From Escherichia phage Ptacy1537: a stretch of DNA of 43,020 nt. The position numbers and the translations under genes are program-made. Below, piece by piece: positions 1 through 24,895 of this stretch; the stretch's first letter is position 1; each line of letters opens with the position of its first letter. The stretch lies in the sequence record PQ863254.1; one strand, given 5' to 3'. Below the pieces are notes generated by a model. The model was not told the origin of the DNA. It was given only the letters and a program-made list of their open reading frames with translations, and made no database searches.

Positions 1-1914
1 ATGGCTCACATCTTCGAGAGTGAAGACGACATCCCGTTGGATTATGTCTTCGAAGAGGATTACGACGCCGACGAGGGTGCTGGAGAATACCTCAGCGACG
101 AGGACTTCGCACAGCTCCCCGCCTTAGAGCAAGAGCGTGTAATCCGAATGGAGCAGCTGAGAGAGCTGCAACGCTACTACAAAGACTTCAACACCTTCCT
201 GCTGGACGCGATGATTCACCTGGGCTTCTCCTTATCGAAGGTCCAGGCCGACATCGGCAAGTTCATGGCATACGGGCCGAAGTACCTGATGGTGCAGGCC
301 CAGCGTTCCCAGGCAAAGACAACCATCGCTGCCGCCTTCTGTGTATGGACCTTGATTCACGACCCGCGACACCGTATCCTGATTATATCAGCAGGGGGCG
401 ACCAGGCCGACGATATCTCCAAGCTGGTTACTGGCTTGATTATGGATATGGACGTCCTGGAGTGTATGCGGCCGGACAAGTCCAAAGGCGACCGCGTAAG
501 CGTTAAAAAATTCGACGTCCACTATTCACTGCGCAAGCTGGATAAGTCGGCGTCAGTATCCTGTTGCGGTATTACGGCAAACTTGCAGGGTCGGCGTGCT
601 GACCTGTTGCTGGCAGATGACATTGAGTCACAGAAGAACTCCCTGACGGCCCTCATGCGTGAGCAGCTGCTGGCGAAGACCCTGGACTTCATCTCCATCA
701 ACCAGTCTGGCCGTATCCTGTACCTGGGTACTCCGCAGTCCTCGGACTCAATCTACAACACACTCGCTGGCCGTGGTTACGCAATCCGTATCTGGCCTGG
801 CCGATTCCCTACTGCTGAGCAGCGTCCGTACTACGGTGAGTTCCTGGCACCGATGCTGGACGATATGTCGAAGAAGCACCCGGAGCTGCTGGAAGGCGGC
901 GGTGCGAACTACGACCAGGGCCGTCCCATCGAACCTTCGTTCCTGGGTGAAGACCTGCTGCAAGCGAAGGAGCGTGACCAGGGGCCGTCTTGGTTCCAGC
1001 TCCAGCACATGCTGAATACCAAGCTGATGGACGCCGAGCGCTATCCTCTGAAGTCAGAGAATATCATCGTGTTGCCTATCCGTATTGGAGACCAGCTCCC
1101 ATATGAGGTAAAACGTGGCTACGCATTCCAAGAATACCAGCTCCTCGGTAAATCTTATCGATTCGCTCTTGCGCACTCAATCAGCCCTGCTGTCGAGTAC
1201 CCAACCGGAATCAACTTCTACATCGACCCAGCGGGCGGGGGTAAAGGCAAAGGCACCCACGGAGGTGACGAAACCGGGTGGGCCTGCACAGCGTTCCTGA
1301 ATGGCAACATCTTCTGCCTCGGGTATGGCGGTGTTAAGGGTGGCTACGATGAGACCCAGCTTGATGAGCTTGCCAAGTTGGTTGCAAAGTTCAAGCCCAA
1401 TACCGTCACCATTGAGAAGAACTACGGCTTCGGTGCGTTCGCTGCTGTATTCCTGCCAATCCTCCGCAAGCACTATACAGATTGTGAGGTGCTTGAGGAT
1501 ATGGTCGGCAATGCGCAGAAAGAGATTCGTATAATCGACACTCTGGAGCCCATCATTGCCCGTGGCTCTCTCATCATGGCAGAGTCGGCTATCAAGGGAG
1601 AGCCTAACACCCTCACCAAACATCCTGAAGTAAACCGCATCACGTACATGCTGTGGCAGCAGATGGGCCTCCTCACCCGTGAGAAGGACTCCCTGGTCCA
1701 CGATGACCGTCTTGATGCACTGGCGGGCTCCTGTGCCCATTGGCAGGAGCAGCTGAAGGTTGACCAGGAGAGGGTGCTTGCGGCCCGTGCAGAGGCTGAG
1801 ATGCAGGCATTCTGGAAAGACCCACTAGGTCACAACCGCTACCGCACCCAGGGCCAAATGGCCAACCAGGGTACAAACAACATGCTGGCATACCGCCGCA
1901 ACCAACGCCGCTGA
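1..1914 (+). CDS. Terminase large subunit (T7 gp19-like)
   Basis: 637-aa ORF. N-terminal region matches the remembered T7 gp19 pattern (FxxF..., RSQAKTT, CVWTL..DPRHRILIISAGGDQADD). May wrap from the window end. Confidence 0.85.
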   Translation: MAHIFESEDDIPLDYVFEEDYDADEGAGEYLSDEDFAQLPALEQERVIRMEQLRELQRYYKDFNTFLLDAMIHLGFSLSKVQADIGKFMAYGPKYLMVQAQRSQAKTTIAAAFCVWTLIHDPRHRILIISAGGDQADDISKLVTGLIMDMDVLECMRPDKSKGDRVSVKKFDVHYSLRKLDKSASVSCCGITANLQGRRADLLLADDIESQKNSLTALMREQLLAKTLDFISINQSGRILYLGTPQSSDSIYNTLAGRGYAIRIWPGRFPTAEQRPYYGEFLAPMLDDMSKKHPELLEGGGANYDQGRPIEPSFLGEDLLQAKERDQGPSWFQLQHMLNTKLMDAERYPLKSENIIVLPIRIGDQLPYEVKRGYAFQEYQLLGKSYRFALAHSISPAVEYPTGINFYIDPAGGGKGKGTHGGDETGWACTAFLNGNIFCLGYGGVKGGYDETQLDELAKLVAKFKPNTVTIEKNYGFGAFAAVFLPILRKHYTDCEVLEDMVGNAQKEIRIIDTLEPIIARGSLIMAESAIKGEPNTLTKHPEVNRITYMLWQQMGLLTREKDSLVHDDRLDALAGSCAHWQEQLKVDQERVLAARAEAEMQAFWKDPLGHNRYRTQGQMANQGTNNMLAYRRNQRR

Positions 1915-1937
1915 AAGGCGGCTATAAGGAATATTAA

Positions 1938-2540
1938 ATGCGAGTATCTGACGTCCCATTCTGCCCGTCCATCCTGGCTGCTGCCCAGCTGCGTGTAGAG
2001 GTTTGCAAACTGTTCAACCACGCTGCCCTGATGAAGGACCGTGGCGGCACCTATGCCACTGACGTACTGGTCCCGTTCTGGACTGCTATTAAGGCCCTGG
2101 CGCAGCTGCCCAATGGCCGCCCGTACGACGGACCGTATCTGGGTGCGGGTATCCGGGACCTGCGGCCGCAGATTTACAAGTGTCTCACCTCCGTACGCAA
2201 GTTCCCACTGACCGCTAAGCCGGAGTTCGAGGCGCTATGTGATTGGGCTATTGCCACCGCTACCGCCTTGGCACCGACTGTAGATGTCACAGGCGTTACA
2301 GTAGCACCGGCCACTACCAGCATCGTAGCAGGTAACACCCGCAAGATTGTACCTACCGTGGCACCTGCTGACGCCACCAACAAGGGCGTTACGTGGACTA
2401 CCAGCGACCCGGCTGTGGCCACTGTTGCCTCTGACGGCACTGTCACTGCTGTTGCTGCTGGCACCTGCACTGTGACCTGTATCACTGTAGACGGCGGCTT
2501 CACTGCCACCACTGCGGTTACTGTAACTGAACCTGCTTAA
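1938..2540 (+). CDS. Hypothetical protein with C-terminal bacterial Ig-like (Big_2-like) domain
   Basis: 200-aa ORF with AAGGA 9 nt upstream of ATG. C-terminal about 80 aa is T/V/A-rich with VTWTTSDPAVATVASDGTVTAVAAGTCTVT, typical of Big_2 Ig-like folds. N-terminal half unrecognised. Confidence 0.55.
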   Translation: MRVSDVPFCPSILAAAQLRVEVCKLFNHAALMKDRGGTYATDVLVPFWTAIKALAQLPNGRPYDGPYLGAGIRDLRPQIYKCLTSVRKFPLTAKPEFEALCDWAIATATALAPTVDVTGVTVAPATTSIVAGNTRKIVPTVAPADATNKGVTWTTSDPAVATVASDGTVTAVAAGTCTVTCITVDGGFTATTAVTVTEPA

Positions 2541-2570
2541 TAGGGAGGCCCGGCGTACCGGGCATAGCTT

Positions 2571-3149
2571 ATGGGTATCAAAACTCGCGTAGGCTACTGC
2601 TCTGTAGCCGTCGTCCTGGCCCTGGTCAGTACCAACCACCCAGGGGAGATTCGAACCTCTAAGGAGGGCCTGGAGCTCCTCTCTGGTTATGAGGACTGCC
2701 GCACACAGGCATACCTGGACATCGTAGGAATCCCTACGTGCGGTATTGGCAGCACCTCCGGTGTCCGTATGGGCACTACCTGGACAGAGGCACAGGTGGC
2801 AGCTGCGTTCGTTAAGGACGTACAGGCGGCAGAGAAGTGCGTCCTCGTGTACTTTAACGGATACGCCATGCCGCAACCGGTGTTCGACTCTGTGACCTCT
2901 CTGGTGTTCAACACCGGATGCTGGGGTGCACGCTGGAACAACAAGCTGAACCGCCCGACTGGCATTGCTCAGTACGCTAAGGCGGAGGACTGGCAGAATG
3001 TGTGTTACAGATTGGGTGACTTCATCTACGCTGGCGGGAAGGTCTCTAATGGCCTAAAGAACCGTCGAGCTAAGGAGCAGGCTCACTGTATAAAGTGGCA
3101 AGTACCACAATCCTATGAGGGTTCCAGATGGACTCCAAATCCCCGTTGA
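2571..3149 (+). CDS. SAR endolysin (T4/P1 lysozyme-like muramidase, GH24)
   Basis: N-terminus is a weakly hydrophobic G/A/S-rich stretch (VGYCSVAVVLALVST) followed by EGLELLSGYEDCRTQAYLDIVGIPTCGIG, matching the catalytic E-D-T region of P1 Lyz / P21 R type signal-arrest-release endolysins. Confidence 0.75.
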   Translation: MGIKTRVGYCSVAVVLALVSTNHPGEIRTSKEGLELLSGYEDCRTQAYLDIVGIPTCGIGSTSGVRMGTTWTEAQVAAAFVKDVQAAEKCVLVYFNGYAMPQPVFDSVTSLVFNTGCWGARWNNKLNRPTGIAQYAKAEDWQNVCYRLGDFIYAGGKVSNGLKNRRAKEQAHCIKWQVPQSYEGSRWTPNPR

Positions 3150-3511
3150 TTAAACTGGCCGTAGTCGGCGCTGTATTGGTCGCTATGGTTATCCCGTCAT
3201 TAGTCGGGTATCACTACTACGGTAAGGTGGCAGTGCTCAAGCAGAGCGTTAAAGACCTCACCGACGACCTCGTCCATACCCAGGATACACTGGAGGCCAC
3301 CCTTGAGGGTGAGCAGCGTGCTAACCTGGCTTTATCCGAGCTTCGCAAGAAGAAGGGCTTAACCGATGCTGAACTTCAAAGTGCAAAATCCGAGCTGGAG
3401 CGTATTCACCTTCGCAACCCAGGCAACAATTGTCCTGTATTGCCTGCTGTCGCTGACAGGCTGCGGGCAGCAAACGACCAAGTACGTAAGAGTGGCTCCC
3501 TACGTCCCTGA
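3128..3511 (+). CDS. Rz-like inner-membrane spanin (i-spanin)
   Basis: 127 aa. N-terminal transmembrane segment (LIKLAVVGAVLVAMVIPSLVGY) followed by a charged coiled-coil region. Overlaps the endolysin stop. Confidence 0.6.
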   Translation: MDSKSPLIKLAVVGAVLVAMVIPSLVGYHYYGKVAVLKQSVKDLTDDLVHTQDTLEATLEGEQRANLALSELRKKKGLTDAELQSAKSELERIHLRNPGNNCPVLPAVADRLRAANDQVRKSGSLRP

Positions 3512-3662
3512 GAGCCTCTATGACCCGTGCACTCCACCAGCCTTACCTGAGGGTGTACTTGACCAGTTAATCATTGAGCAGCACGTCCTGGACCTCTATG
3601 GGACCATCTCAGGCTGCAATGATGACAAGGCTGAAATCAAGAAGCTACTCAGCGGTAAATAG
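3366..3662 (+). CDS. Rz1-like outer-membrane lipoprotein spanin (o-spanin), overlapping Rz in the +1 frame
   Basis: ORF starts inside the Rz gene in another frame and runs past its stop. Hydrophobic signal ends in lipobox LSLTGC; the mature part is Pro-rich (PYVPESLYDPCTPPALPEG). Confidence 0.5.
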   Translation: MLNFKVQNPSWSVFTFATQATIVLYCLLSLTGCGQQTTKYVRVAPYVPESLYDPCTPPALPEGVLDQLIIEQHVLDLYGTISGCNDDKAEIKKLLSGK

Positions 3663-4927
3663 TTGCCCGTTACAGTGCACTCCTCTTCCCGACTGGTGAG
3701 TGTACTGTTGCGGCCCAATTATGGCATAAAATTGTATGACCGGAGCGACCCTCGCGACACCCCTCGCTTCCCCCATAGGCCCTCCGCTTTGCACCATCGT
3801 GGAGCATTGGGCCGCCTCCGGGCACCTGGGCCTGCACTGGCAGGGCCATCATGGGCACCTATCGTGTGAGCTCCTGTAACTCCCTGTGCGACACTGTAGG
3901 CCATCACCGCTACCTACGTATCACCGTCTGGCTAATCGCCAGCCGTAGGGCCGCATAGGGCCATCTATCAGCTACTGGTTATCATCACTACTGCCTTATC
4001 GTTTATCAGAGTCGGACAAGGTAGACTCAAGGGTTATCATAGTCGGTCTGTTTAGCAGAGTGAGTACCATCACTCAGAGATTATAGTGTAGCTGAGTCCT
4101 TACTATAGCCGGGGAGTGAACCAGTGTCAACCCTATCTTATGACTATCTCACTACTCATTGTGTCGGGAGTGTCCTATTGTGTTAGACACGCGCTTAGCG
4201 TGGCTGTGCCCTTCTCTGTGCTCTTCCTATCGTGTGACAAGGGTAAGCCCTATCTCATACCTATCGTGCACTCACATTGCTTTATAGCGGCTCTTATTGT
4301 GTGTACAGGGGCGGGCTATCTGTATCCCTGTTTGCCAGCTCATCACACTGTTAACACATACCGTCTAACCATAGGGATAACCTGAGTCATACCCTACCAG
4401 TGACCTATCATCACACCTATCAAGCTATACACTGTATCCATAGTCTAATCGCCTATGGTAAGCACATAGTGATTCTACCGTTGAATATAAACATATCACA
4501 GATAGTGAGTACCTATCTGTCCACTACTAGCTCCACTGTCTAATCGCCAGTGGCTAACGTCCTATTCGTAGTCCTCCGCTACGCTCCGTACATACTCACT
4601 TCTGATACAGATAGAGAGAATTGTAACATACGTTACTACCTACCTATCCCTACCTGTAAGGCCCATTGCTTCGTTCTGTGCTCATAGAGTATGACGAATC
4701 AAACAGCACAGAGCCTGCACTCACAGTGCCTTAAATATAATCCTATTGAATACATACACTTAGCAATTAATTCGAATTTATTTGCAAATAACGCTTGCGC
4801 TTTTAGTCGGCTATACCCTATCATTCAATCACACCGCAGCAATCAGGCGGCAAGCAGTAAGAAGTACCGCTCTTTAACAATATGGTCATAGTATAGTGTG
4901 TCCTCTCAGGAGTATAGGGGATGATAC
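3663..4927. other. Large non-coding region, probable physical genome-end / terminal region in a circularly opened assembly
   Basis: No credible ORF (only short, overlapping, hydrophobic or low-complexity ORFs). Visibly lower GC, many CCTATC-type short repeats and three CTAATCGCC hairpins. Lies between the lysis cassette and the early promoter, where T7-like genomes have their ends. Confidence 0.5.
3928..4553 (+). repeat. Three hairpins sharing a CTAATCGCC core with different complementary stems
   Basis: 3928-3942 CTGGC-TAATC-GCCAG; 4438-4458 CCATAG-TCTAATCGC-CTATGG; 4533-4553 CCACTG-TCTAATCGC-CAGTGG. Stems are perfect inverted repeats that differ in sequence while the loop core is kept. Confidence 0.6.
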
Positions 4928-5299
4928 ATGACACTAAGCAAAGTACAACAAGCCGCGAACAAACAGGCCCAACGGTTAGCCAAACAGGCAGCCCGACAGG
5001 CCCAGAGTACCACAGAGCGTGCCCGTGCTGTGGCCTTGTGCAAAGCTGGCTCCTCAAAGGCTGGCAAGGCGGAGGCCCGCAGGATGGAGCTTGGAAAGCT
5101 GGCGTATAGTAAGACGGTCGGCGGTATGAATTATGCGGTGGATGCACGCAAGCAGCGCAAGCAGGATAAGCCCGCCGCCGCGAAGTACACTAAGCAAACA
5201 GACTTTGGTACACGTACCGCTACCTACGGTAGCAAGACAGATGCAACGGTTAACAGTTACCGCCGGGCTAAATCAGGCGATAACCTGCCACGTAAATAG
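4928..5299 (+). CDS. Hypothetical basic low-complexity protein (doubtful gene)
   Basis: 123-aa K/R/A/Q-rich ORF upstream of the early promoter. Weak RBS. Could be spurious. Confidence 0.3.
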   Translation: MTLSKVQQAANKQAQRLAKQAARQAQSTTERARAVALCKAGSSKAGKAEARRMELGKLAYSKTVGGMNYAVDARKQRKQDKPAAAKYTKQTDFGTRTATYGSKTDATVNSYRRAKSGDNLPRK

Positions 5300-5312
5300 T
5301 TTAAATAAATGC

Positions 5313-5341
5313 TTGACATTAACGAGGATGCACCATACTAT
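5313..5341 (+). promoter_or_regulatory. Candidate host sigma70-type early promoter
   Basis: TTGACA (5313-5318), 17-nt spacer, TACTAT (5336-5341). Sits upstream of the early gene block on the coding strand. Confidence 0.45.
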
Positions 5342-5868
5342 GACCATACAGACAGCGGAGACCGACACGGCAAACAACGTTAGGTGAGTCTCCAATGTTT
5401 GGGCCTTGCACTCGCAAGCGCTTTTGTGAAAGAGACTTTGATGTACACATTGTGGAAGTACCCAGCACAGAGGAAACTCCGGTGATGGGAAGTGGAAGGT
5501 GCTTAAGTGCGATTGCCACGAGGAACCGCGATGGGGAAGCGTAGTATAGGGACGATAACCCTTTAAAGATATCAGGCCGGGTGAGATGGTAGGTCAGTTA
5601 TAAAATCCATCGATAATAGTGTTTGGCGAGCATTCCCTCCACCGAACGGGAGAAATCGCATCCAGCGTCACTGAGCGGGACAAGTCTCAAACGTATTGGA
5701 TTAACATCTGCTCCTGAGTAGGACGGGTAACGCGGTTAGCGCATGGTGACACTGTGAAGTGGTTCGATGCAATGCTTGACGCCTACCGACGCGAAAGGGA
5801 GCGGGTTAACATATGAGTATTCAATGGTGAGTATTCATACCTTTAACCAAACGATGAGGATTTACAAA

Positions 5869-6429
5869 ATGGCTACTACCAAAACCGCTAAAGCTACCAA
5901 AACCACTTCTGATTTCGTCAAGCTGGCTATGATTCCGGCTGATTTGGATAAGGCGATTGACCGTGTGTGTGTCGCTTCCAAGACGCTGCAATCTGACATC
6001 CACGATGTGGCCGTGGCTATCATGGTTCACACCTACAACCACAACGATTTCAGCAAGGCACAGACCCTTGTCGATGGCCTGGGTGAGGGTGTGCGCCGTG
6101 GTGCTCTGGTTGAGTGGTTCCAGGCCGCAGGTCTGAAGGTAAACGCTGAGGCTGGCGCTTTCTCTGGCTTCAACAAGGCCAAGATGGAAGATAAGTGGGA
6201 TAAGGTTAAATCCACGCCGTGGTATACCATGAAGCCGGAGCGCCCGTTTGCTGGCTTTGACCTGATGGCTGAGCTTGAGCGCCTGCTGTCTAAGGCTGAG
6301 AAGGCGACTAAGAAGAACGCCGACACGCCGGAGGACCAACGTGCTGAGGGTTACACTTTTGTGTGCGATGCCGACAAGCTGGCCGCCCTGCGTGCGATGA
6401 TTCACCCGGCAACGCAGACTGTTAACTAA
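5869..6429 (+). CDS. Early hypothetical protein
   Basis: ATG at 5869 with GAGGA 8 nt upstream (chosen over the 5767 start in the ORF track). 186 aa, no recognised domain. Confidence 0.6.
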   Translation: MATTKTAKATKTTSDFVKLAMIPADLDKAIDRVCVASKTLQSDIHDVAVAIMVHTYNHNDFSKAQTLVDGLGEGVRRGALVEWFQAAGLKVNAEAGAFSGFNKAKMEDKWDKVKSTPWYTMKPERPFAGFDLMAELERLLSKAEKATKKNADTPEDQRAEGYTFVCDADKLAALRAMIHPATQTVN

Positions 6430-8708: not shown

Positions 8709-9106
8709 AACTGAATAAAATGATGGTGCTGGTGTCGGCCGAGTGTTCCGACCTGTGCGACTCCGAGAACGCAGACCGCACCGCAGAGCTGCGACACTGG
8801 ATTGGCACCTCTTACCGCCACCGCTTCAGCTCAGCCCTCGGCAAGTACAACGGCAACACTGAGAACTCCTTCTTGATTCAGGTCGATGACTTCCGGGACA
8901 TCGGCTATATCTCAGACAAGGCCGCTGAGATGAATCAGGAATCCATTCTGATACTGGATGCCCGCGACAAGGCATTCCTGTATTACCCGGCGTCAAAATC
9001 ACTTGAGCCTATTGGGTTGATGCTGAGCTGCCCTATGTCGGCATTCAATGCTGCGCACCACACCGCGTACACAATCATCGGCGATACCGCCTATTATACT
9101 ATCTGA
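8705..9106 (+). CDS. Early hypothetical protein
   Basis: 133-aa ORF, overlap-coupled start. Confidence 0.5.
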   Translation: MKLNKMMVLVSAECSDLCDSENADRTAELRHWIGTSYRHRFSSALGKYNGNTENSFLIQVDDFRDIGYISDKAAEMNQESILILDARDKAFLYYPASKSLEPIGLMLSCPMSAFNAAHHTAYTIIGDTAYYTI

Positions 9107-9116
9107 GGATAACACT

Positions 9117-9584
9117 ATGACACGCAAAACTGTATCTGAACGTCGCATGGCTGGCGCTAACAAGCAAATCGCAGAGCTGACCCAGGCGCTGCACGAGTCC
9201 CGTGAGTACGGTGAGGTTCTGGCCGCCGGTATCAAGGATAAGGATGGCTTAATCCGCCACCTCAAGACAGCCAATAACAGTCTGCGCGTTAAGCTGGCTG
9301 AGACGGACTCTGCCTTGAACGCATCTCAGGCGGACCTTCATGAGGTGACGGCAGCGGCCTCTGTAACAGCTGAGAACCGGGACTTCTATAAAGGGGCACA
9401 CGCCGTTGCAACTCGACAGCTGCGGGACATGACTAATCTGGTAGACCTGGAATACGACAGGGCAGACTCTTACCTTGCGAAGCTTAACTCAGCTGAGAAG
9501 GATGTCCTGTCATGGAAGCGTGGATTCTTTGCGCTGGTGGTTATCACAGTAATTGCACAGGTGGTGAACTATGTCTTTGGTTAA
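9117..9584 (+). CDS. Hypothetical coiled-coil protein with C-terminal transmembrane anchor
   Basis: ATG at 9117 with GAGGA upstream. 155 aa. Long helical charged region, then hydrophobic C-terminus FFALVVITVIAQVVNYVFG. Confidence 0.5.
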   Translation: MTRKTVSERRMAGANKQIAELTQALHESREYGEVLAAGIKDKDGLIRHLKTANNSLRVKLAETDSALNASQADLHEVTAAASVTAENRDFYKGAHAVATRQLRDMTNLVDLEYDRADSYLAKLNSAEKDVLSWKRGFFALVVITVIAQVVNYVFG

Positions 9585-10083
9585 CAGCCGCACCCCGAAG
9601 GCGCACCCGGATGAACAACATCAGGGTACGTACAACCTCAAGCCCGTTTCTGTGTTTATGTATGAGGAGGGGAGTCCACGGGAGACCTTCAATGCCGTCG
9701 AGGTCGGCGAACTTCTGCGTTATTACGGTGTTGATAGCGTCATGGACCTTCCTCCTCAGGAGCCTGCACTCGCAGACGCCCCAACGCACGGATTTGGTGA
9801 GCCCCGGCGCTTTGCTTCGGGTTCGCCGGGATTGCAGAACCTTCCGAAGGAGGGTGCGCGTCGGATGTCTGCCCCGGAGGCGTTCGCTGCGCCGTATGGC
9901 GTTTCCGTATCGCTGGAGCATCCATACGGGGAGGTGCGTAAGGTGGTTAAGAAGCGCGAGACCTCACAGACCGGGGTAGTGGCGTTTGATGCCACACTTC
10001 TGTTACTCAAAGGCCTGAGCACCGAGCAGGCTGACTACGTGTTCCAACTTCTGGCTGAACAGCTGGGCTACGATATCCAATAA
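9571..10083 (+). CDS. Hypothetical protein
   Basis: 170-aa ORF with coding-like composition. No recognised domain. Confidence 0.5.
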   Translation: MSLVNSRTPKAHPDEQHQGTYNLKPVSVFMYEEGSPRETFNAVEVGELLRYYGVDSVMDLPPQEPALADAPTHGFGEPRRFASGSPGLQNLPKEGARRMSAPEAFAAPYGVSVSLEHPYGEVRKVVKKRETSQTGVVAFDATLLLLKGLSTEQADYVFQLLAEQLGYDIQ

Positions 10084-10094
10084 GGAAACCAACG

Positions 10095-10352
10095 ATGAAC
10101 CTGATTACCATTCTGCACAAACTGTTAGACCGCGCATACCGTAAAGCCGCCGCCCGTGCTACTGCCCGCGCTGTTAAAGCGGAGAAGCACCGCGAAGCGT
10201 TAGCCGACGAGGCCCTGGAGCTGGCGGCTCAGCTGGCTGAGGTGCAGCACGAGCACCGCAACACCTTTTATGAAATTCAGGCCCAGCATAATGAAGCTGA
10301 GCGTATCGAAGCCCAGCGCCAGAAAGCCGCTGACCTGTTCGGAGGTATCTAA
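10095..10352 (+). CDS. Hypothetical coiled-coil protein
   Basis: 85 aa, A/E/R/Q-rich helical sequence. RBS-like GGAAAC upstream. Confidence 0.45.
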   Translation: MNLITILHKLLDRAYRKAAARATARAVKAEKHREALADEALELAAQLAEVQHEHRNTFYEIQAQHNEAERIEAQRQKAADLFGGI

Positions 10353-10353
10353 G

Positions 10354-10830
10354 ATGACCAAACGCACCATTAAATTCGACATCTCCGTATCCGGCAGCGC
10401 GGTGGTTGACATCGACCACCTGCTTAACCTGCTGCAAAAGTGCAGCAAGTTCCCGTGGGCCCAGCACTTGCTGGCCGTATATGCCAGCGGTGGCGAGGAT
10501 GAACTGGCGGCGACCTATATCAGGCAGGCGTACGCAGGCGGCTTAAATAACCTGCTGCGTGCCTGGGCTACAGATAGCGTAACGCAGGAGGAGCACGGCG
10601 GCAAGGCCAAGTTCGCCCCGGCCCGCGTCACCGTCGAGGTCAAGCAGAAGCGTGTACTGTATGCCAGCGATGTTGCCATCGGAGGCCGCTACAAGTTCGA
10701 CAGCCCGGACTTCGACGGCTACTACGAGGGCGCGTTCACACGTAACGGTGAGCGCTCTTCTGTCACGGCCGAAGGTGGGCATGTGCCGTGGGAAGGGCAC
10801 GAGACCTGGCCGGTTGTGCTGGTAGTGTAA
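10354..10830 (+). CDS. Hypothetical protein
   Basis: ATG at 10354 with GGAGG 8 nt upstream. 158 aa. Confidence 0.5.
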   Translation: MTKRTIKFDISVSGSAVVDIDHLLNLLQKCSKFPWAQHLLAVYASGGEDELAATYIRQAYAGGLNNLLRAWATDSVTQEEHGGKAKFAPARVTVEVKQKRVLYASDVAIGGRYKFDSPDFDGYYEGAFTRNGERSSVTAEGGHVPWEGHETWPVVLVV

Positions 10831-14742: not shown

Positions 14743-17242
14743 CGTAGAGACAGAAACGAACCCGTGGTACGGACACCTGGCCTCCCCGTATAACCCGCTT
14801 AACTATGTGGTAATGGATGCCTTCGAGCAAGTTACCTTTGGTGGCGGTAAGGTGAGAGTCAGCCCCCGAACCGAACAACGCTTCGCTTCTGTCGAAGACT
14901 TTAAGGCCCGCTGGCCCCAGCCGTTCCCTGACAATGTGAACATCTACGTAGCGCACAACGCCGCGTACGAGATGCAGTGGCAGCTGGAACATAACTTTGA
15001 TAACTTCGTAGCGTTCCTGAAACGGGGCGGAAGGGTGTACTGTACGGCGTATGCGCACTACTTGCTAAGCAACCAGCAGGACACGTACCCGCCGCTTAAC
15101 GAAGTCGCCCCACTGTACGGCGGTACGCAGAAGGTGGATGGCGTTAAGGCACTGTGGGACGCCGGGGTGCTTACCTCTGCGATTGACCCAGAGCTGCTGA
15201 GCGAATATCTGTCCGGCCCGAATGGTGATATCGACAACACCACCCGCGTATTCCTGGGCACCTGGAACCAGCTGGTCGAACGAAACATGCTGACGATGGC
15301 GCTGGTGCGTATGGATAGCCTGCTGTATCTGGCATTCTGTATGCACTTCGGGTTGAAGGTTGACGAGGATAAGGCCCACCGCCTACAGGCGGAGAACGAG
15401 GCCGCACTCGCAGACCTTAACAAGCAGCTTTATGAATACCTGCCTTCGGATATGCCGGAAGAAGCCCGCGAGCAATTCAAGGGCACACGCTTCCAGCTTT
15501 CAGCATTCCTGTTCGGCGGCGCAATGAAGTACGAGAGTCAGGTGCCCCGCACCGATTCGACTACTGGCGAGCTGATTTACAAGAAGGCCGAAGGTCCGGT
15601 GTTCAAGTGGCTCAAGGAAACATACGTCAAAGACCCGGCGCTCTGTGAGTTCGACGAAGAGGCTGGCGGTCTGTGGTATGACCCTGAGCGCAAGGTGCAC
15701 CAGGTTCGGTACACGGCAGGTAAGAACAAGGGACAACCCAAGTTCGACAAGTACGTGACCGACGAGGTTGACACCAAGAAAGGCGAGCTGATTTACCAGT
15801 TCCGGGGTATGATTCAGGGCGCTGTGCGGGATAAGCTGCGAGATGCTATCGAGACCGAATGGGCGGGCAGTCAGAAGCTGGCCGACGGCACACCGGTAGT
15901 CTCCACCGCAGGCGACGTGCTGGAAGTCCTGGCTGCCCACGATGTCCCGGTGGCCAAGCTGCTGGACCTAATCGGCAAGATTGAGAAGGACCTGGGTGCG
16001 TTCTACCTGGTGCAGACGTTCAACAAGGATGGCTCCCTGAAGAAGCAATCAGGGATGCTTCAGTACGTGCAAGAGGATGGCTTCATCCACCACACGCTGA
16101 ACACCACATCCACGGTTACGGCCCGCCTGTCTTCTAACAAGCCGAACATGCAGCAGATACCCCGAGCTGAAGAGGCCAAGCCTGGTGACTTTAAGTCAAA
16201 GGTTAAGAGCATCTTCATATCCCGGTTTGGTGCTGACGGCGGCATACTCCAGGAGGACTACAGCGCACTGGAGACGGTTGGCCAGCAGGTAATGACTGGC
16301 GACCAGAACCTCAAAGAGGCGCTGATTAAAGGCCTGGACATGCACTCAATGCGTCTGGCTGCAATGGAGGAGTTGACGTATGAGTACGTCGTCGCCCGAA
16401 CGAAAGATGGTGCTCATCCTGAGCACGCCGAGTGGGATGTCAAGCGAACTGGTATTAAGCCTGTTGCGTTCCAGTATCAGTACGGAGCCACGTCTTACGG
16501 TATGGCCATGTCCACCGGTAAATCGCAGGACTTCTGTCAGGCGTTTATCGACGCCGAGAAGAAGGCGTTCCCAGGGGTAGAGAGCTGGTACGATAACGTG
16601 GTTTACCCGGCGGTTGAGCAGTCCTCGTTGAAGCGTAAGCCAACACGGGTACAGACAGAGGATGGCCAGTACCGACTGTACCGCACAGGGGTATTCATCG
16701 CTCCGTCTGGCACTACGTATCAATTCCAGCAGTACACCAAGCTGCGCTGGGACCCGGAGAGCCGCACTCGCAAAGAGTTCTCTGAGTTCAAAGTCCCGCA
16801 AATGCGTAACTACCCAATCCAGGGTGAGTCCGGCTTCTTCGTACAGCTGGGCTGCGGTATGCTGATTCGACACTTCATTGCCCGCGACTTCTACGGAATG
16901 AAGGCGCTGCCGATTAACACAGTGCACGATGCTAACTACTTCGACGTTCACAGAGACGTAGTGCAGCAGGTAGCCTGTGAGGTGGAAGTAATCATGGAGT
17001 CAATCCCTGAGATGCTGAACCACCTGTGGCCAGCGTACAATGTCGAAGTGCCATTCCCGGTAGCGGGTGGTTACGGCGACAGTATGGCCGAGGAGAACCC
17101 TGTGTTCTCCAGCAAGAGTAAGAAGGAAGAGCCGGAAGGCTTTAAGGCTGACAAGGCCGCCTGGGTGGTACGGAAGAATCAGTTTAAGACTGACTATCTG
17201 GCCGCTAAGAATATCCAAGTTAAATTCCCATGCACTCAATAA
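14717..17242 (+). CDS. DNA polymerase, family A (T7 gp5-like) with 3'-5' exonuclease domain
   Basis: Start taken at ATG 14717 (MSLIALVHDVETE, exo I-like DxE). Pol A motif A DYSALE. 841 aa. The ORF-track start at 14561 overlaps the upstream gene. Confidence 0.85.
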   Translation: MSLIALVHDVETETNPWYGHLASPYNPLNYVVMDAFEQVTFGGGKVRVSPRTEQRFASVEDFKARWPQPFPDNVNIYVAHNAAYEMQWQLEHNFDNFVAFLKRGGRVYCTAYAHYLLSNQQDTYPPLNEVAPLYGGTQKVDGVKALWDAGVLTSAIDPELLSEYLSGPNGDIDNTTRVFLGTWNQLVERNMLTMALVRMDSLLYLAFCMHFGLKVDEDKAHRLQAENEAALADLNKQLYEYLPSDMPEEAREQFKGTRFQLSAFLFGGAMKYESQVPRTDSTTGELIYKKAEGPVFKWLKETYVKDPALCEFDEEAGGLWYDPERKVHQVRYTAGKNKGQPKFDKYVTDEVDTKKGELIYQFRGMIQGAVRDKLRDAIETEWAGSQKLADGTPVVSTAGDVLEVLAAHDVPVAKLLDLIGKIEKDLGAFYLVQTFNKDGSLKKQSGMLQYVQEDGFIHHTLNTTSTVTARLSSNKPNMQQIPRAEEAKPGDFKSKVKSIFISRFGADGGILQEDYSALETVGQQVMTGDQNLKEALIKGLDMHSMRLAAMEELTYEYVVARTKDGAHPEHAEWDVKRTGIKPVAFQYQYGATSYGMAMSTGKSQDFCQAFIDAEKKAFPGVESWYDNVVYPAVEQSSLKRKPTRVQTEDGQYRLYRTGVFIAPSGTTYQFQQYTKLRWDPESRTRKEFSEFKVPQMRNYPIQGESGFFVQLGCGMLIRHFIARDFYGMKALPINTVHDANYFDVHRDVVQQVACEVEVIMESIPEMLNHLWPAYNVEVPFPVAGGYGDSMAEENPVFSSKSKKEEPEGFKADKAAWVVRKNQFKTDYLAAKNIQVKFPCTQ

Positions 17243-17253
17243 GGTAAATATAA

Positions 17254-18084
17254 ATGACTACTGATACTCAACTGTCCCGCGCCCAACAAATCGCTGCCCG
17301 TGCCGCCGCCGCCGTAGACCGTCATGGCGACCAGAACGAAGTCGTAGCGGGCGGTGGCGGTAACTACACCCCGCCACCGGCTGGTAAAGCTAAGGCGCGT
17401 CTGGTTGGTTACTTTGAGACTGGCCCGCAGAAGAACAAGAACTACCCGGACAAACCGGCGCAGAACTCGTTCATCCTGCAATTTGCACTGTACGGCGAGG
17501 GTTATGCCCGTGAAGACGGCAAGCCGATGACCATCGAAACCCGTAAGTTCGCCGTCGGCCGTGGTGAGAAGTCCAACGCAGTTAAAATCTTCCGCCAGCT
17601 GTGCCCTACCAAAGACGTGCAGCACTTCCTGGGGCTGCTGGGCCGTGCATTCTGGGTTGTCATTGAGCACAACACCCAGCCAGCTAAGGAAGCTGGTAAA
17701 CCGGATGTGGTATTCGCCAACATCAAAGAGAGCGAGCTGAAGCCTGCTCTGCGCGACGTGTTCGATGATGACGATAACCTGATTGGCCAGCGCGAAGTAG
17801 CGGTGCCGGAAGCCACCGACGACCAGTTCAAGGTCTTCGAGTGGGACGTACCGAGCAAGGAAGACTTCGACAGTCTGTCTGGTAAATACCAGAAGATTAT
17901 CCGTAGCTCTGAAGGCTTCGCACAGTCCGCCCTGTTCGCACTGGTAGGCGCGGGCAACCCGGCCACCACCGATGCCCCGGACGAAGGACCGGAGCCGCAG
18001 GATAGTGAAGACGAGCCACAGACCCCGCAGACCCCGGTGACTGACACCCCGGTAGCGGACGCTGGCGCACTGCCGTCGCTGTAA
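17254..18084 (+). CDS. Hypothetical protein with acidic Pro-rich C-terminal tail (possible ssDNA-binding or polymerase accessory protein)
   Basis: 276 aa. C-terminus DAPDEGPEPQDSEDEPQTPQTP. Lies between the polymerase and exonuclease genes. Function inferred from position only. Confidence 0.5.
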   Translation: MTTDTQLSRAQQIAARAAAAVDRHGDQNEVVAGGGGNYTPPPAGKAKARLVGYFETGPQKNKNYPDKPAQNSFILQFALYGEGYAREDGKPMTIETRKFAVGRGEKSNAVKIFRQLCPTKDVQHFLGLLGRAFWVVIEHNTQPAKEAGKPDVVFANIKESELKPALRDVFDDDDNLIGQREVAVPEATDDQFKVFEWDVPSKEDFDSLSGKYQKIIRSSEGFAQSALFALVGAGNPATTDAPDEGPEPQDSEDEPQTPQTPVTDTPVADAGALPSL

Positions 18085-22282: not shown

Positions 22283-24778
22283 GTGGCTACACTCGCAGAC
22301 CAATTGGCGTTTGAAATCAAGCACCGCGACCTCGGCCGTGAACGTATGGCGGCTATTATCCAGTCAGCTGGGGAGCAGGGTAGATTGACAGACACGCCGT
22401 TGGGTACGGGTGTGCTCCGTCGATACCTGCAACGCCTCTCTGAAACCATCTCACTGGACATCACTGAGGAGCTGGGCGTACCGGGCCGCTCTAAGCAGTA
22501 CGCTGTATTGCTGAAGAACATGGACCCGGACGTACTGGCCCTGGTGTCTCTGGATACCGTCATCGAACATCTTGAGATGAGCGATGAGGAGGAGGATTCA
22601 GTACCCCTGGGTAGTATGGCATCTGCGATTGGCCGGGCTATTCACAGTGAGATTATCTTGACGGAGTTCAAGGACATATCGCCGGACTTATACGAGGTAC
22701 TGACTAACAGCCTCAAGTCGCGAATGAGCAAGAACCTCCGGCACAAGATGGCAGTGTACAAGATGCAGGCCGCTGAGCAAGGTCTGGTTCTGCCAGAGTG
22801 GACGACGGCACAGCGTGCACAGGTCGGCTCATACCTCATCGGTCTGCTGATTAACATGGGTGTGCTGGAACAGTTCACACGTTGGATTAAGCGCAAGTCC
22901 GTATACTGTGTCTCGCTGGGTACGGATGTGGTCGAATTGATGGAGGCCATCAGGGAGCGCGTAATTGAGCGCTCAGGCTTCGCAGCACCCTGCCTAATAC
23001 CACCGGAACCCTGGACCGGAGAAGAGGGCGTAGGGGGCTTCCACGGAGCTCTGAAGCTACGTGCCCCTCGCTTCTTCAAAGGAACATCCGAGCAGCTGGA
23101 GATAATGCAGACGGAAGGGTGTGACCTGACCACCACCCTGGCCGCGTTGAATTTCCAGCAGAGGGTAGCATGGAAAGTCAACCCATTCGTGCATAAGCTG
23201 GCCCTGTTAATGCTCCAGTACCGCTACGAGTTGAAGAAGTCAATCACTTCGGTGGCGTACTACCCGAAGCCTGACAGGCCCGAGTGGCTCGACCTCTGCG
23301 ACGATATGTCCAAGATATCGCCGAGGCAGAAGGAAGAGTTCGACAAGTGGAAGCTGGCCACCCGAGACTGGCACACAGAGAACAAGAAACGTGCCCGCAT
23401 TGAGGTGCGTATGCGCTTGGCCCTGGCAGCTGCGCGGGACTTCGGTGAGCTTGAGCGCTTCTACTTCGTATGCCAGGCAGATGACCGGGGCCGGGAATAC
23501 TTCTGCTCCGGGCCGCTTAACCCGCAGGGAAGTGACCTACAGAAAGCCCTGCTGCACTCCGCAGTAGGTGGGCCTGTAGACACTCCAGAGGCTGTGTTCT
23601 GGTTTAAGCTAAACATCGCCACGAAGTATGGCATTGACAAACTGGCTCCGGCCGACTGTATAAAATGGGTGGATGATAACCATGACAACATTATCTCGGC
23701 GGCGGCTGACCCTCTTAATCGCGAAGCATTTGACTGGTGGGCACAGGCCGATAAGCCGCTACAGTTTATCGCGGTGTGCGACGAGTATCGCCGTTGGGTT
23801 GAAGACCCTGTGGGTTTTGAGGCTCGAATCGCAGTCTCTATGGACGGGACGTGTAACGGCCTTCAGAACTATTCCGCGCTACTTAGGGACCCCATTGGTG
23901 GACGCGCTACGAATCTCATTAGCGCCGAATCTGGAATACCTAATGACATATACGGTGACGTGGCCCTCGCCGCTTTTAAGAGGCTCGAAGCTGACGTGGG
24001 CGGAATTTACAGACCCGGCTGGCTACTACACGGATTCAACCGAAAGCTGACGAAGCCGTCGGTCATGACCCAGGTGTACGGCTCGACGTTCGGTACGTGT
24101 CGCAAGTCCATTGTGTCGTACTGTGTAGAGCGGGCGCTGTTTGAGGATGAGCAGTATGAGCACGCTGATTACGCTGCACGTCTGGTCTGGGAAGGGATTG
24201 GAGATGTTGTTGTTGCAGCACGGGAATGTATGGAGTGGCTACGCAAGTGTGCCGGACTCATTATGGCTGAGGGTGCTGAGTTCATATCCTGGCCTGCTCC
24301 TTCGGGATTCAGGGTAGTCCAGGTGTACCGCAAGCCAAAGCTGGTGCAGGTAAGGGCGCACATCGGCAAGAGTGTGTCATATGCAATCCAGGTGGCGGTG
24401 GATGACACCGACGACCAGGACAAGATTCGACACCGAAATGCCTTCCCACCCAATTTCATCCACAGCGTCGACGCAAGCCACTTAGCAATGGTGGCTGTGG
24501 GTATGGGTTCCCTACATGAACAGATGCGCTTAGAGGGCCGCCTATCGAAGATTTGGGCTAATGAAAGTGTGTTCCTGCACTTCATCCATGACGACTTCGG
24601 TGCATTGCCACATATGGCGGCTGACTTGGCACGCATAATTCGTGAGAAGTTTGTTGAAATGCACGAGAATTATGACATTGAGTCTATCAGAAAGGACTAC
24701 TGGTTCCTCCCAGAATCTCCGAAGAAAGGCTCATTAGATATTCGTTGTGTACTCGACAGTATTAACTTCTTCCGTTGA
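22283..24778 (+). CDS. Single-subunit DNA-dependent RNA polymerase (T7 RNAP-like)
   Basis: 831 aa. GTG start with AAGGAG 6 nt upstream. C-terminal region has the T7 RNAP-type motif IHDDFG and the palm-domain FIHSVDASH. Confidence 0.9.
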   Translation: MATLADQLAFEIKHRDLGRERMAAIIQSAGEQGRLTDTPLGTGVLRRYLQRLSETISLDITEELGVPGRSKQYAVLLKNMDPDVLALVSLDTVIEHLEMSDEEEDSVPLGSMASAIGRAIHSEIILTEFKDISPDLYEVLTNSLKSRMSKNLRHKMAVYKMQAAEQGLVLPEWTTAQRAQVGSYLIGLLINMGVLEQFTRWIKRKSVYCVSLGTDVVELMEAIRERVIERSGFAAPCLIPPEPWTGEEGVGGFHGALKLRAPRFFKGTSEQLEIMQTEGCDLTTTLAALNFQQRVAWKVNPFVHKLALLMLQYRYELKKSITSVAYYPKPDRPEWLDLCDDMSKISPRQKEEFDKWKLATRDWHTENKKRARIEVRMRLALAAARDFGELERFYFVCQADDRGREYFCSGPLNPQGSDLQKALLHSAVGGPVDTPEAVFWFKLNIATKYGIDKLAPADCIKWVDDNHDNIISAAADPLNREAFDWWAQADKPLQFIAVCDEYRRWVEDPVGFEARIAVSMDGTCNGLQNYSALLRDPIGGRATNLISAESGIPNDIYGDVALAAFKRLEADVGGIYRPGWLLHGFNRKLTKPSVMTQVYGSTFGTCRKSIVSYCVERALFEDEQYEHADYAARLVWEGIGDVVVAARECMEWLRKCAGLIMAEGAEFISWPAPSGFRVVQVYRKPKLVQVRAHIGKSVSYAIQVAVDDTDDQDKIRHRNAFPPNFIHSVDASHLAMVAVGMGSLHEQMRLEGRLSKIWANESVFLHFIHDDFGALPHMAADLARIIREKFVEMHENYDIESIRKDYWFLPESPKKGSLDIRCVLDSINFFR

Positions 24779-24870
24779 TTCGTAATACTCTATGTACGGC
24801 TGACGATTAGTCAGACGATATACAGTGTTATATTATGTGTTATTAAGTGAGTATAATTAATTAATAATCT

Positions 24871-24895
24871 GATTAGTTATACTCTAAGAACACTG
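24871..24895 (+). promoter_or_regulatory. Candidate phage RNA polymerase promoter (copy 1 of a 25-nt consensus)
   Basis: CTGATTAGTTATACTCTAAGAACAC. Shares the core TATACTCTAAGAACAC (CATACTCTAAGAACAC in the third copy) with 28186-28210 and 39376-39400. Lies 12 nt upstream of a gene start in an intergenic gap. Confidence 0.6.

Follow-up and report, generated by a model that had tools for sequence, protein, structure and literature searches.

The window analysed here is the whole 43,020-nucleotide (nt) sequence of Escherichia phage Ptacy1537 (PQ863254.1), a complete T7-like podophage genome (Melnykvirinae) that opens at the large terminase gene (open reading frame, ORF, 1-1914). The object of the analysis was a family of small hairpins, four of which lie in the non-coding stretch 3663-4927 and one behind the RNA polymerase (RNAP) gene. 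Since the layout of its direct terminal repeat (DTR) matches that of T7, the stretch 3663-4927 is the concatemer-junction and left-end control region of a T7-type genome. A sequence-only reading of this stretch had described three hairpins with a shared centre within about 630 bp, and all three were found, with stems CTGGC/GCCAG at 3928-3942, CCATAG/CTATGG at 4438-4458, and CCACTG/CAGTGG at 4533-4553. Their common 9-mer, CTAATCGCC, is present in exactly three copies in the window (3932, 4445, and 4540; all on the plus strand, spanning 617 bp); by our own arithmetic, about 0.33 exact copies would be expected on both strands.

The hairpin region is 77%-89% identical to that of six Klebsiella phages from GenBank (Autographiviridae, Melnykvirinae), namely K59PH2, KYP, vB-Kvc-Y10, 6937, vB_KpP_GP-4, and vB_Kpn1-P3 (Y10, GP-4, and Kpn1-P3 below); these and the window are the seven genomes compared throughout. 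No further match to the hairpin region was found among 50,697 phage records, at low stringency as well. The RNAPs of the six relatives are 95.5%-96.6% identical to that of the window and those of the next relatives at most 59%, and therefore the clade is small and isolated. GP-4 was deposited with its physical ends, and its DTR was determined with PhageTerm (PMC11486747). This repeat is exactly 584 bp long, and transfer of its edges, together with the end motif of phage phi80-18, places the DTR of the window at 3745-4318 (574 bp); it is present once because the assembly was circularised. The left edge reads GCGACCC... and lies about 22 nt ahead of TTCCCCCATAGG, and the right edge reads ...GGGCTA/TCTGTATC, where the slash marks the cut. 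The ligation-mapped DTR of phi80-18 terminates at the same motif, GGCGGCTTA/TCTAT. The order of TTCCCCCATAGG near the left end, ATCTGT at the right edge of the DTR, and boxA before the first gene is that of T7, in which the counterparts are TTCCCCCATAGGGGG at 23-38, a 160-bp repeat, ATCTGTT from 161, and boxA GCTCTTTAACAA at 813. The proposed location of the three hairpins in an end region was borne out, one being inside the 574-bp DTR and two 120-225 bp to the right of it, upstream of the early promoter region.

The family comprises five members in the window, including two beyond the original three, at 4185-4205 and 24797-24817, both inverted. A confinement to the terminal region thus held for the four members in or beside the DTR and failed for the fifth, which follows the RNAP gene. 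The packaged genome carries seven hairpins since the DTR is duplicated. All five copies share one architecture in all seven genomes: eight stem positions with seven Watson-Crick pairs and one pyrimidine.pyrimidine mismatch, a closing C-G pair, a TAA[T/G]C pentaloop, and no pairing past position 8. On the opposite strand, the mismatch is purine.purine and the loop reads G[A/C]TTA. No copy has lost the mismatch; counted from the loop, E2 and E3 have it at position 2, whereas E1, E4, and E5 have it at position 6.

E1 (3925-3945, plus strand; CG-T-CTGGC TAATC GCCAG-C-CG; 38.1 bits with the covariance model described below) lies inside the DTR, with its T.C mismatch at position 6. In all seven genomes, 187-190 nt separate its centre from the left edge of the DTR, although no other DNA of the region has diverged as much as this interval up to the left terminus. 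E4 (4185-4205, minus strand; 30 bits) is the inverted copy inside the DTR. At this site five relatives read CAGGC GATTA GCCTG on the plus strand (CAGGC TAATC GCCTG on the minus strand). The window has a changed pair and a changed loop, with AG-A-CACGC GCTTA GCGTG-G-CT on the plus strand and CACGC TAAGC GCGTG, loop TAAGC, on the minus strand. E2 (4438-4458, plus strand; CCATAG-T-C TAATC G-C-CTATGG; 37.8 bits), with its mismatch at position 2, lies about 129 nt to the right of the DTR edge and is followed by E3 (4533-4553, plus strand; CCACTG-T-C TAATC G-C-CAGTGG; 33.6 bits). E5 (24797-24817, minus strand; plus-strand sequence CG-G-CTGAC GATTA GTCAG-A-CG; 36.9 bits), found in the genome-wide scan, is identical in all seven genomes and begins 19 nt past the RNAP stop codon. 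Its flanks equal those of E1 (cgtCTG.CTAATCG.CAGccgta; on the minus strand cgtCTGaCTAATCGtCAGccgta versus cgtCTGgCTAATCGcCAGccgta).

Paired variation of the stems, the probable active face, and distribution

Perfect hairpins with stems of 5 bp or more number 15 in the region 3663-4927, whereas 1,000 dinucleotide shuffles gave 8.1 ± 2.9 (p about 0.017), so the region exceeded the random count against which the sequence-only reading had proposed to check it; three hairpins with a common central 7-mer appeared in none of the 1,000 shuffles. Related genomes, the other proposed check, retain all five sites in the six relatives, and the orthologues keep every hairpin while stem pairs change on both sides, as the claim of selection on structure predicted. 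The stems of E1 are CTGGC/GCCAG, CAGGC/GCCTG, or CAGCC/GGCTG, all perfect, and more than 10 nt of flanking sequence on either side is invariant. Those of E4 are CAGGC/GCCTG or CACGC/GCGTG, and those of E2 are CCATAG/CTATGG or CCGTAG/CTACGG. Among orthologues, this amounts to at least four independent compensatory double substitutions (T-A to A-T and G-C to C-G in E1, G-C to C-G in E4, and A-T to G-C in E2), compared to two uncompensated single substitutions (E2 of KYP and E3 of GP-4). Over the 13 distinct sequences of the family, 85.6% of the paired cells were complementary versus 63% after shuffling (reached in 0 of 500 trials) and 18%-43% in slid registers, and seven of the eight stem pairs had changes on both sides; this count pools paralogues and orthologues, so the shuffle figures are not probabilities, and the events among orthologues are the cleaner evidence. 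The hairpins stand out as conserved islands with an identity of 0.87-0.97 between adjacent blocks of 0.41-0.70. By these comparisons, the pairing is maintained by selection, which would mean that the hairpins act in single-stranded form. A cruciform in duplex DNA, as had been suggested, is unlikely with stems of 5-8 bp.

The loop core had been delimited incorrectly. The 9-mer CTAATCGCC is partly stem (GCC), and E1 reads CTAATCGGC in three related genomes, with GGC in place of GCC; the invariant core is C-TAATC-G, that is, the closing pair and the pentaloop. The functional face is probably the complementary C-G[A/C]TTA-G, because of its better predicted folding, the behaviour of the loop variants, and the purine.purine mismatch on that face. 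Predicted DNA folding gave -5.4 to -8.3 kcal/mol for the G[A/C]TTA strand and -3.3 to -5.1 kcal/mol for the other strand, and RNA folding prediction favoured the same strand. Between the two loop variants, position 2 of G-N-T-T-A changes, and the terminal G and A are kept. No G.U pair was found in 104 pair cells, although few positions were able to show one, and no pair had a one-sided (wobble) change.

With a covariance model built from the 13 distinct sequences, exactly five sites were recovered in the window, at 30-38 bits, whereas GP-4 gave seven, those in the DTR being present twice. The next-best match in the 264 kb searched, which took in the whole genomes of MA13, Dev-CD-23823, and phi80-18, Aeromonas-phage contigs, and T7 1-6200, scored 10 bits; no member was found in MA13, Dev-CD-23823, phi80-18, or T7 1-6200. 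IMG/VR loci collected by terL shared the DTR layout and contained no family member. A scan of IMG/VR for CCNNNGTCTAATCGCCNNNGG gave 16 matches with only 0-2 of 3 free pairs complementary in each, and these were rejected as unrelated chance matches and served as a negative control. A metagenome scan with the E1 flanks yielded one incomplete contig of the same clade and no new stem variant. Among 185,579 prokaryotic genomes, the E1/E5 consensus had five matches, one of them with complementary free stem positions, and none in Enterobacterales. A REP/BIME-type repeated palindrome or other host element was rejected, there being no counterpart in host genomes. To judge from these searches and the pairing, the hairpins are a clade-specific family of five imperfect hairpins and a selected single-strand signal.

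The DTRs of phi80-18 (111-131; also fHe-Yen3-01) and MA13 (2626-2646) contain a CTAGGC-GATTAGCTG-GCCTAG hairpin with GGCGATTAGC, and the RNAPs of these phages are only 55%-59% identical to that of the window. This hairpin has AGGCGATTAGC and the plus-strand orientation in common with E4 and a different closing stem. On the strength of this shared sequence and orientation, E4 may be the ancestral copy, the other four being an expansion specific to the clade. The shared flanks of E1 and E5 suggest that these two arose by duplication of a promoter-plus-hairpin module.

Phage promoters, pause motifs, and the site after the RNA polymerase gene

The phage-RNAP promoter was recognised as a repeated 22-mer, GATTCGTNATACTCTAAGAACA, present on the plus strand at 24777, 24871, 28188, and 39378; these four sites correspond to the promoter locations P2-P4 of phi80-18. 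No phage promoters were reported for GP-4 (PMC11486747), and the consensus, unannotated there, is supplied here. Allowing up to five mismatches, the window contained five matches, the fifth being GATTCGTCATACTCTATGAGCA at 4679-4700 on the minus strand (starting at 4700; two mismatches, 0 expected by chance), with a presumed +1 at about 4683. In Y10, 6937, and Kpn1-P3, both promoters after the RNAP gene carry GATTAGTTACACTC instead of GATTCGTNATACTC, and the minus-strand site has switched likewise. Since it is conserved and follows each genome's own promoter type, the site 4700-4679 is, on comparative grounds, a real leftward promoter. It is unannotated in the related records consulted. The phage promoter phiOL of T7 is also near the left end, but it points right, while the one described here points left. 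No minus-strand ORF longer than 25 amino acids (aa) was found downstream before the left part of the repeat, which ruled out a small protein gene behind this promoter, and a globally structured leftward RNA was unsupported (fold z = -1.0).

The pause-like 11-mer CTATCTGTATC (4316-4326, plus strand) lies at the right edge of the DTR, and its inverted copy GATACAGATAG (4604-4614, minus strand) is at about +70 to +80 of the leftward promoter. Both are invariant in the seven genomes and form a perfect 11-nt inverted repeat, with E2 and E3 between the convergent copies. The class II signal of T7 is ATCTGTT on the non-template strand, and one such signal is located at the T7 concatemer junction (bioRxiv 10.1101/2021.01.11.426313). 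Both 11-mers carry ATCTGTA, matching this signal at six of seven positions, and the copy at 4316-4326 is the counterpart of the T7 junction signal at position 161. The second, inverted motif and the leftward phage promoter are without T7 counterparts except for the leftward Escherichia coli promoter A0 at position 224. In phi80-18 (ATCTGTT at about +36) and Dev-CD-23823 (ATCTGTA at about +45), a pause motif likewise follows a left-end promoter, and these promoters point rightward. MA13 has a leftward promoter near its left end (3181-3170, minus strand), directly followed by the hairpin ACCAG-AAAGA-CTGGT. The motif CTATCTGT occurs in the window in six copies against 1.1 expected, four of them clustered within 300 bp in the pause-motif region. 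No description of the hairpins or of the leftward promoter was found in the literature on the clade, the subfamily, phi80-18, and T7 end processing; the papers found on these phages and their relatives, including PMC11486747 and PMC7316996, mention neither these nor the inverted pause motif.

Phage promoter P1 (24777-24798, plus strand) overlaps the RNAP stop codon (the gene ends at 24778) and is directly upstream of E5, which spans about +4 to +24. A tract of 80% A+T (24815-24870; genome average 45%) separates E5 from promoter P2 (24871-24892, plus strand), which stands ahead of the first late gene. Within 24777-24892, all seven genomes conserve both promoters, E5, and the first part of the tract, and the hairpin and that part of the tract are identical. 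Every T7 origin contains a T7 promoter (PMC8373140); secondary origins are located at phage promoters, and the primary origin consists of phi1.1A, phi1.1B, and an A+T-rich region after gene 1. The E5 locus resembles it, being located after the RNAP gene and between two promoters; the promoters at 24777 and 24871, the 80% A+T tract, and the position directly after the RNAP gene make it a putative T7-type origin. The T7 origin region 5810-6010 contains no hairpin of the family kind. Unannotated minus-strand copies of the phage promoter were observed in phi80-18 (21197-21185), Dev-CD-23823 (19317-19306), and MA13 (23738-23727), back-to-back with the promoter after the RNAP gene and reading into the A+T-rich tract.

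Candidate functions of the hairpins

Behind P1, E5 has its GATTA face on the non-template strand, as do E3, E2, and E1 with respect to the leftward promoter, and E4 presents it for rightward read-through across the junction. The element nearest to each mature end, E1 on the left and E4 on the right, has its GATTA face on the 3'-ending strand. The same holds for the cut at the right edge of the DTR, with E4 on one side and E2 and E3 on the other. Such an end-orientation rule would account for one copy per orientation in the repeat.

We consider it most likely, with a probability of roughly one third (0.35), that the hairpins serve replication priming or end processing as a signal that is specific to one strand, acts in single-stranded form, and is read on the C-GATTA-G face. 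They would form on 3' single-stranded tails at genome ends or cut concatemer junctions, and also on the non-template strand displaced by the phage RNAP, that is, at E5 behind P1 and at E3, E2, and E1 behind the leftward promoter. An exposed hairpin could be a recognition or nucleation site for the phage replication machinery, at which the complementary strand would be primed or the primase or helicase loaded. Replication might in this way be initiated at the origin-like site behind the RNAP gene, and the terminal repeat copied or duplicated. The binding, processing, and origin functions initially listed proved too broad to be tested, and the evidence narrows them to a hairpin that acts single-stranded, is strand-specific, and is associated with genome ends and phage-RNAP promoters.

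Signals of this kind are known. The complementary-strand origin of G4, the minus-strand origin of M13/fd, and ssoA of rolling-circle plasmids, with its conserved CS-6 loop, are short hairpins with a conserved loop and variable stems that act only in single-stranded DNA. Such single-strand initiation (ssi) signals are strand-specific and are read by a primase or an RNA polymerase, which starts the complementary strand. The hairpins described here share the conserved loop, the free but complementary stems, and the strand specificity of ssi and single-strand origin (sso) signals, and on this sequence-level likeness priming itself is putative. The known signals, however, belong to single-stranded DNA replicons and employ host enzymes, whereas this genome is a linear duplex of T7 type with its own RNAP and primase, and the hairpins have no sequence similarity to them. 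T7-type single-subunit RNAPs are also known to recognise a small single-stranded DNA hairpin and to start RNA there, as at the promoters of the N4 virion RNA polymerase and the mitochondrial OriL (POLRMT). The N4 hairpins have a stem of 5-7 bp and a 3-nt loop and stand upstream of early genes, while those found here have 5-nt loops, no gene behind them, and clearly defined duplex promoters elsewhere. For T7 itself, a "hairpin end" processing intermediate (Chung, Nardone & Hinkle 1990, J Mol Biol 216:939) is cited in PMC4925675, and hairpin formation in DNA has been suggested to take part in duplicating the terminal repeat. The snap-back intermediate at the T7 hairpin end is large and does not belong to a family of small conserved-loop hairpins, and hairpin structure is absent from the T7 class II signal. 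The T7 terminal repeat contains a 7-bp hairpin GTCAACC-TTC-GGTTGAC at 66-82, the loop of which reads C-GAA-G on the minus strand, the strand 3'-ending at the left end. C-GAA-G is a motif of very stable DNA mini-hairpins, and the orientation of this hairpin may parallel that of E1.

Several considerations weigh against a priming or processing signal in single-stranded DNA. Both the single-stranded state in vivo and the binding of a protein are inferred, and the arguments from orientation suit RNA equally well since an RNA has the sequence of the non-template strand. The DTR is possibly transcribed both ways, which makes the orientation rule flexible and gives it little statistical weight. T7 is not known to require such signals, since it primes its lagging strand at short primase sites and uses concatemers to complete its ends. 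If priming took place within the DTR, the single-stranded tails presumed to anneal into concatemers would become shorter. As sister genera lack the family, it cannot be essential to the general replication mechanism of the subfamily, and the sample consists of seven closely related genomes.

The main and close rival of a DNA signal is an RNA element, which we regard as possible. C-GAUUA-G stem-loops in phage-RNAP transcripts would then act as a stabiliser close to the 5' end or within the transcript, as the site of a phage RNA-binding protein, or as a modulator of the polymerase (pausing, release of primer RNA). E5 begins about 4-7 nt past the presumed +1 of P1, the conserved leftward promoter is upstream of E3, E2, and E1, and rightward read-through of the junction would give E4 the same GAUUA reading. 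Promoter-proximal hairpins are found in relatives too, such as ACCAG-AAAGA-CTGGT in MA13 and GC-rich stem-loops after capsid promoters. The RNA hairpins are predicted at -7 to -11 kcal/mol, E2 and E3 remain local hairpins in the predicted fold of the 284-nt leftward transcript, and a G-start/A-end pentaloop with a purine.purine mismatch is a typical protein-binding RNA hairpin. On the other hand, one class II-like stop signal lies between the leftward promoter and E3/E2, and another separates these two from rightward read-through. The leftward transcript, with no ORF above 25 aa, has an overall fold that is not unusually stable; G.U pairs are missing, with the reservation given above; no Rfam family matched; and the fixed distance from E1 to the DNA end has no obvious rationale in RNA. 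We lean to DNA because E2 and E3 are fenced by stop-like signals, E1 is positioned from the physical end, and no wobble change was found. If the class II-like signals stop the polymerase, there would be little transcription across E2 and E3, favouring a DNA role. These three arguments are weak and do not decisively separate DNA from RNA.

Recognition of the 7-bp core CTAATCG in duplex DNA, by the small terminase, another packaging or end-recognition protein, or the RNAP taking it for a partial promoter, appears unlikely. The core is asymmetric, as many protein sites are, and only one of the five sites is away from the two DTR cut sites, which the other four surround. Of these, E4 and E2 are mutually inverted, one 124 nt to the left and the other 129 nt to the right of the right cut. 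There is also a likeness between CGATTAG, the loop with its closing pair, and TGATTAG at the upstream edge of the promoter. P2 and all promoters read in three relatives begin with the hexamer GATTAG(T), and 10 of 12 bases in the right half of E5 agree with promoter positions -17 to -6. Yet the loop does not track the switch of promoters between GATTCG and GATTAG among genomes, E5 is 20 kb from the ends, and the mismatch is held at a fixed place. Moreover, duplex recognition does not require complementary flanks, and yet flanks of free sequence co-vary to stay paired. Such concerted changes of the arms can be produced without selection by template switching in quasi-palindromes. The hairpins could accordingly be imagined as quasi-palindromes from a duplicated promoter-plus-leader module, kept perfect by template-switch repair and devoid of a function of their own. 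The shared flanks of E1 and E5 fit this explanation, as does the 3' flank of E1, CATAGGG, which echoes the start region of P1, CTCTATG, on the other strand. We consider it very unlikely, since template switching would be expected to "correct" the mismatch, which never occurred, and loops and flanks are invariant in blocks amid DNA of 40%-70% identity. All five sites are retained in 7 of 7 genomes, and the related GGCGATTAGC hairpin persists in the DTRs of phi80-18, fHe-Yen3-01, and MA13 despite their distant RNAPs.

Known classes of elements were also examined. A search of the whole window against Rfam 15 gave no match at the gathering score, and that of 3300-5500 gave only two snoRNA-type chance matches (E 1.6-4.1). 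Intrinsic or T7 class I terminators were rejected because the terminator scan listed none of E1-E4 and no T run follows the stems (ccgtagg, gtaagca, ctaacgt, acgatat). The hairpins are not class II signals, since they lack the ATCTGTT motif and only the neighbouring 11-mers carry ATCTGTA, nor phage promoters, none of them being among the five matches to GATTCGTNATACTCTAAGAACA. A likeness to lambda boxB consists in the 5-bp G+C-rich stem, the pentaloop starting with G and ending with A on the GAUUA face, and the perfect boxA (CGCTCTTTAACAA) in the same non-coding region. In contrast to a lambda nut site, this boxA (4871-4883) is more than 300 nt away from the nearest element (E3, ending at 4553) and beyond the early promoter region, so that the hairpins are upstream of that region and outside the early leader transcribed by the host RNAP. 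One copy within the region is inverted and one is 20 kb away, and an N-like protein is not known here. RNase III sites such as the R sites of T7 have about two helical turns, while pairing ends after eight positions in every copy. An N4-type hairpin promoter was rejected for its 3-nt loop against the 5-nt loop found here and because no gene follows either way. A kissing loop between E1 (TAATC) and E4 (GATTA) does not agree with the change of E4 to GCTTA in the window and Y10, in which E1 is unchanged. Resemblance of CUAAUCG/CGAUUAG to a tRNA anticodon loop was dismissed by reasoning, since position 37 (C) or position 33 (G) is wrong. The hairpins likewise failed as REP-like elements, and by their sequence features they are best classed as conserved-loop structural cis-elements of phage end and origin regions. 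The element is real and well delimited; all seven genomes known to carry it are closely related, and its function is inferred.

A fuller scheme that builds on the single-strand signal is doubtful as a whole. According to it, T7-type phages of this clade would rely on small DNA hairpins, strand-specific and with a pentaloop closed by G...A, to signal initiation or processing at both ends, the concatemer junction, and an internal origin, together with the leftward promoter and two convergent class II pause sites fencing the junction-proximal pair. Strand-displacing synthesis primed by leftward transcription, with the hairpins priming the displaced strand, would then duplicate the terminal repeat. 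In T7-like phages, the mechanism by which the terminal repeat is duplicated at concatemer cutting is unsettled, as is the definition of an origin beyond its promoter. The clade offers a compact, genetically tractable cis set of five 21-nt hairpins, one leftward promoter, and two convergent pause motifs, placed at the terminal repeat, the concatemer junction, and the origin-like site, and natural compensatory variants already indicate which features matter. The physical ends are now placed for a genome deposited in permuted form, and the non-coding DNA concerned is marked as best left undisturbed when these Klebsiella phages are engineered for therapy.

Other features of the non-coding region and of the clade

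The block directly left of the DTR (3673-3745) is 90%-100% conserved and contains an 11-bp hairpin, ACAGTGCACTC...GAGTGTACTGT, at 3673-3709 and CAATT-atggcataa-AATTG at 3716-3734; its GCGGCCCAA.TATGG is also retained in Dev-CD-23823. This block is a candidate packaging or cleavage recognition site, similar to pacB.

At the other end of the region, the perfect boxA of rrn/lambda type (4871-4883) is located 45 nt ahead of the first gene (ATG at 4928) and is preceded by a small hairpin, CCGC-AGCAATCAG-GCGG (4834-4850). The same boxA stands ahead of the first gene in T7 (position 813), phi80-18, Dev-CD-23823, and MA13, which suggests Nus-dependent antitermination of early transcription by the host RNAP. 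The sole strong sigma-70 match, TTGACA-17-TACTAT at 5313-5341, falls after the first ORF (4928-5299). A weaker, fully conserved candidate, TTGCGC-18-TATCAT (4796-4825), follows a tract of 73% A+T (4725-4795) and would supply transcription of the boxA leader.

Between E2 and E3, at 4461-4520, the window and GP-4 hold a 29-nt insertion relative to the other five genomes. The 8-bp hairpin ACAGATAG-tgagtac-CTATCTGT at 4498-4520 brings two additional copies of CTATCTGT and has a terminator-like score on the minus strand.

The genes of the clade (GP-4 9049-10616 and 15912-17960; also present in the window) encode a ligase, a nucleotidyltransferase with a poly(A)-polymerase head domain, a metallophosphoesterase, a polynucleotide kinase/phosphatase, and a phosphotransferase. 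As a set, these enzymes look like a system for RNA or tRNA repair. The late gene region contains a 131-nt direct repeat with 70% identity (40429-40559 and 40633-40763), the two copies being 204 nt apart.

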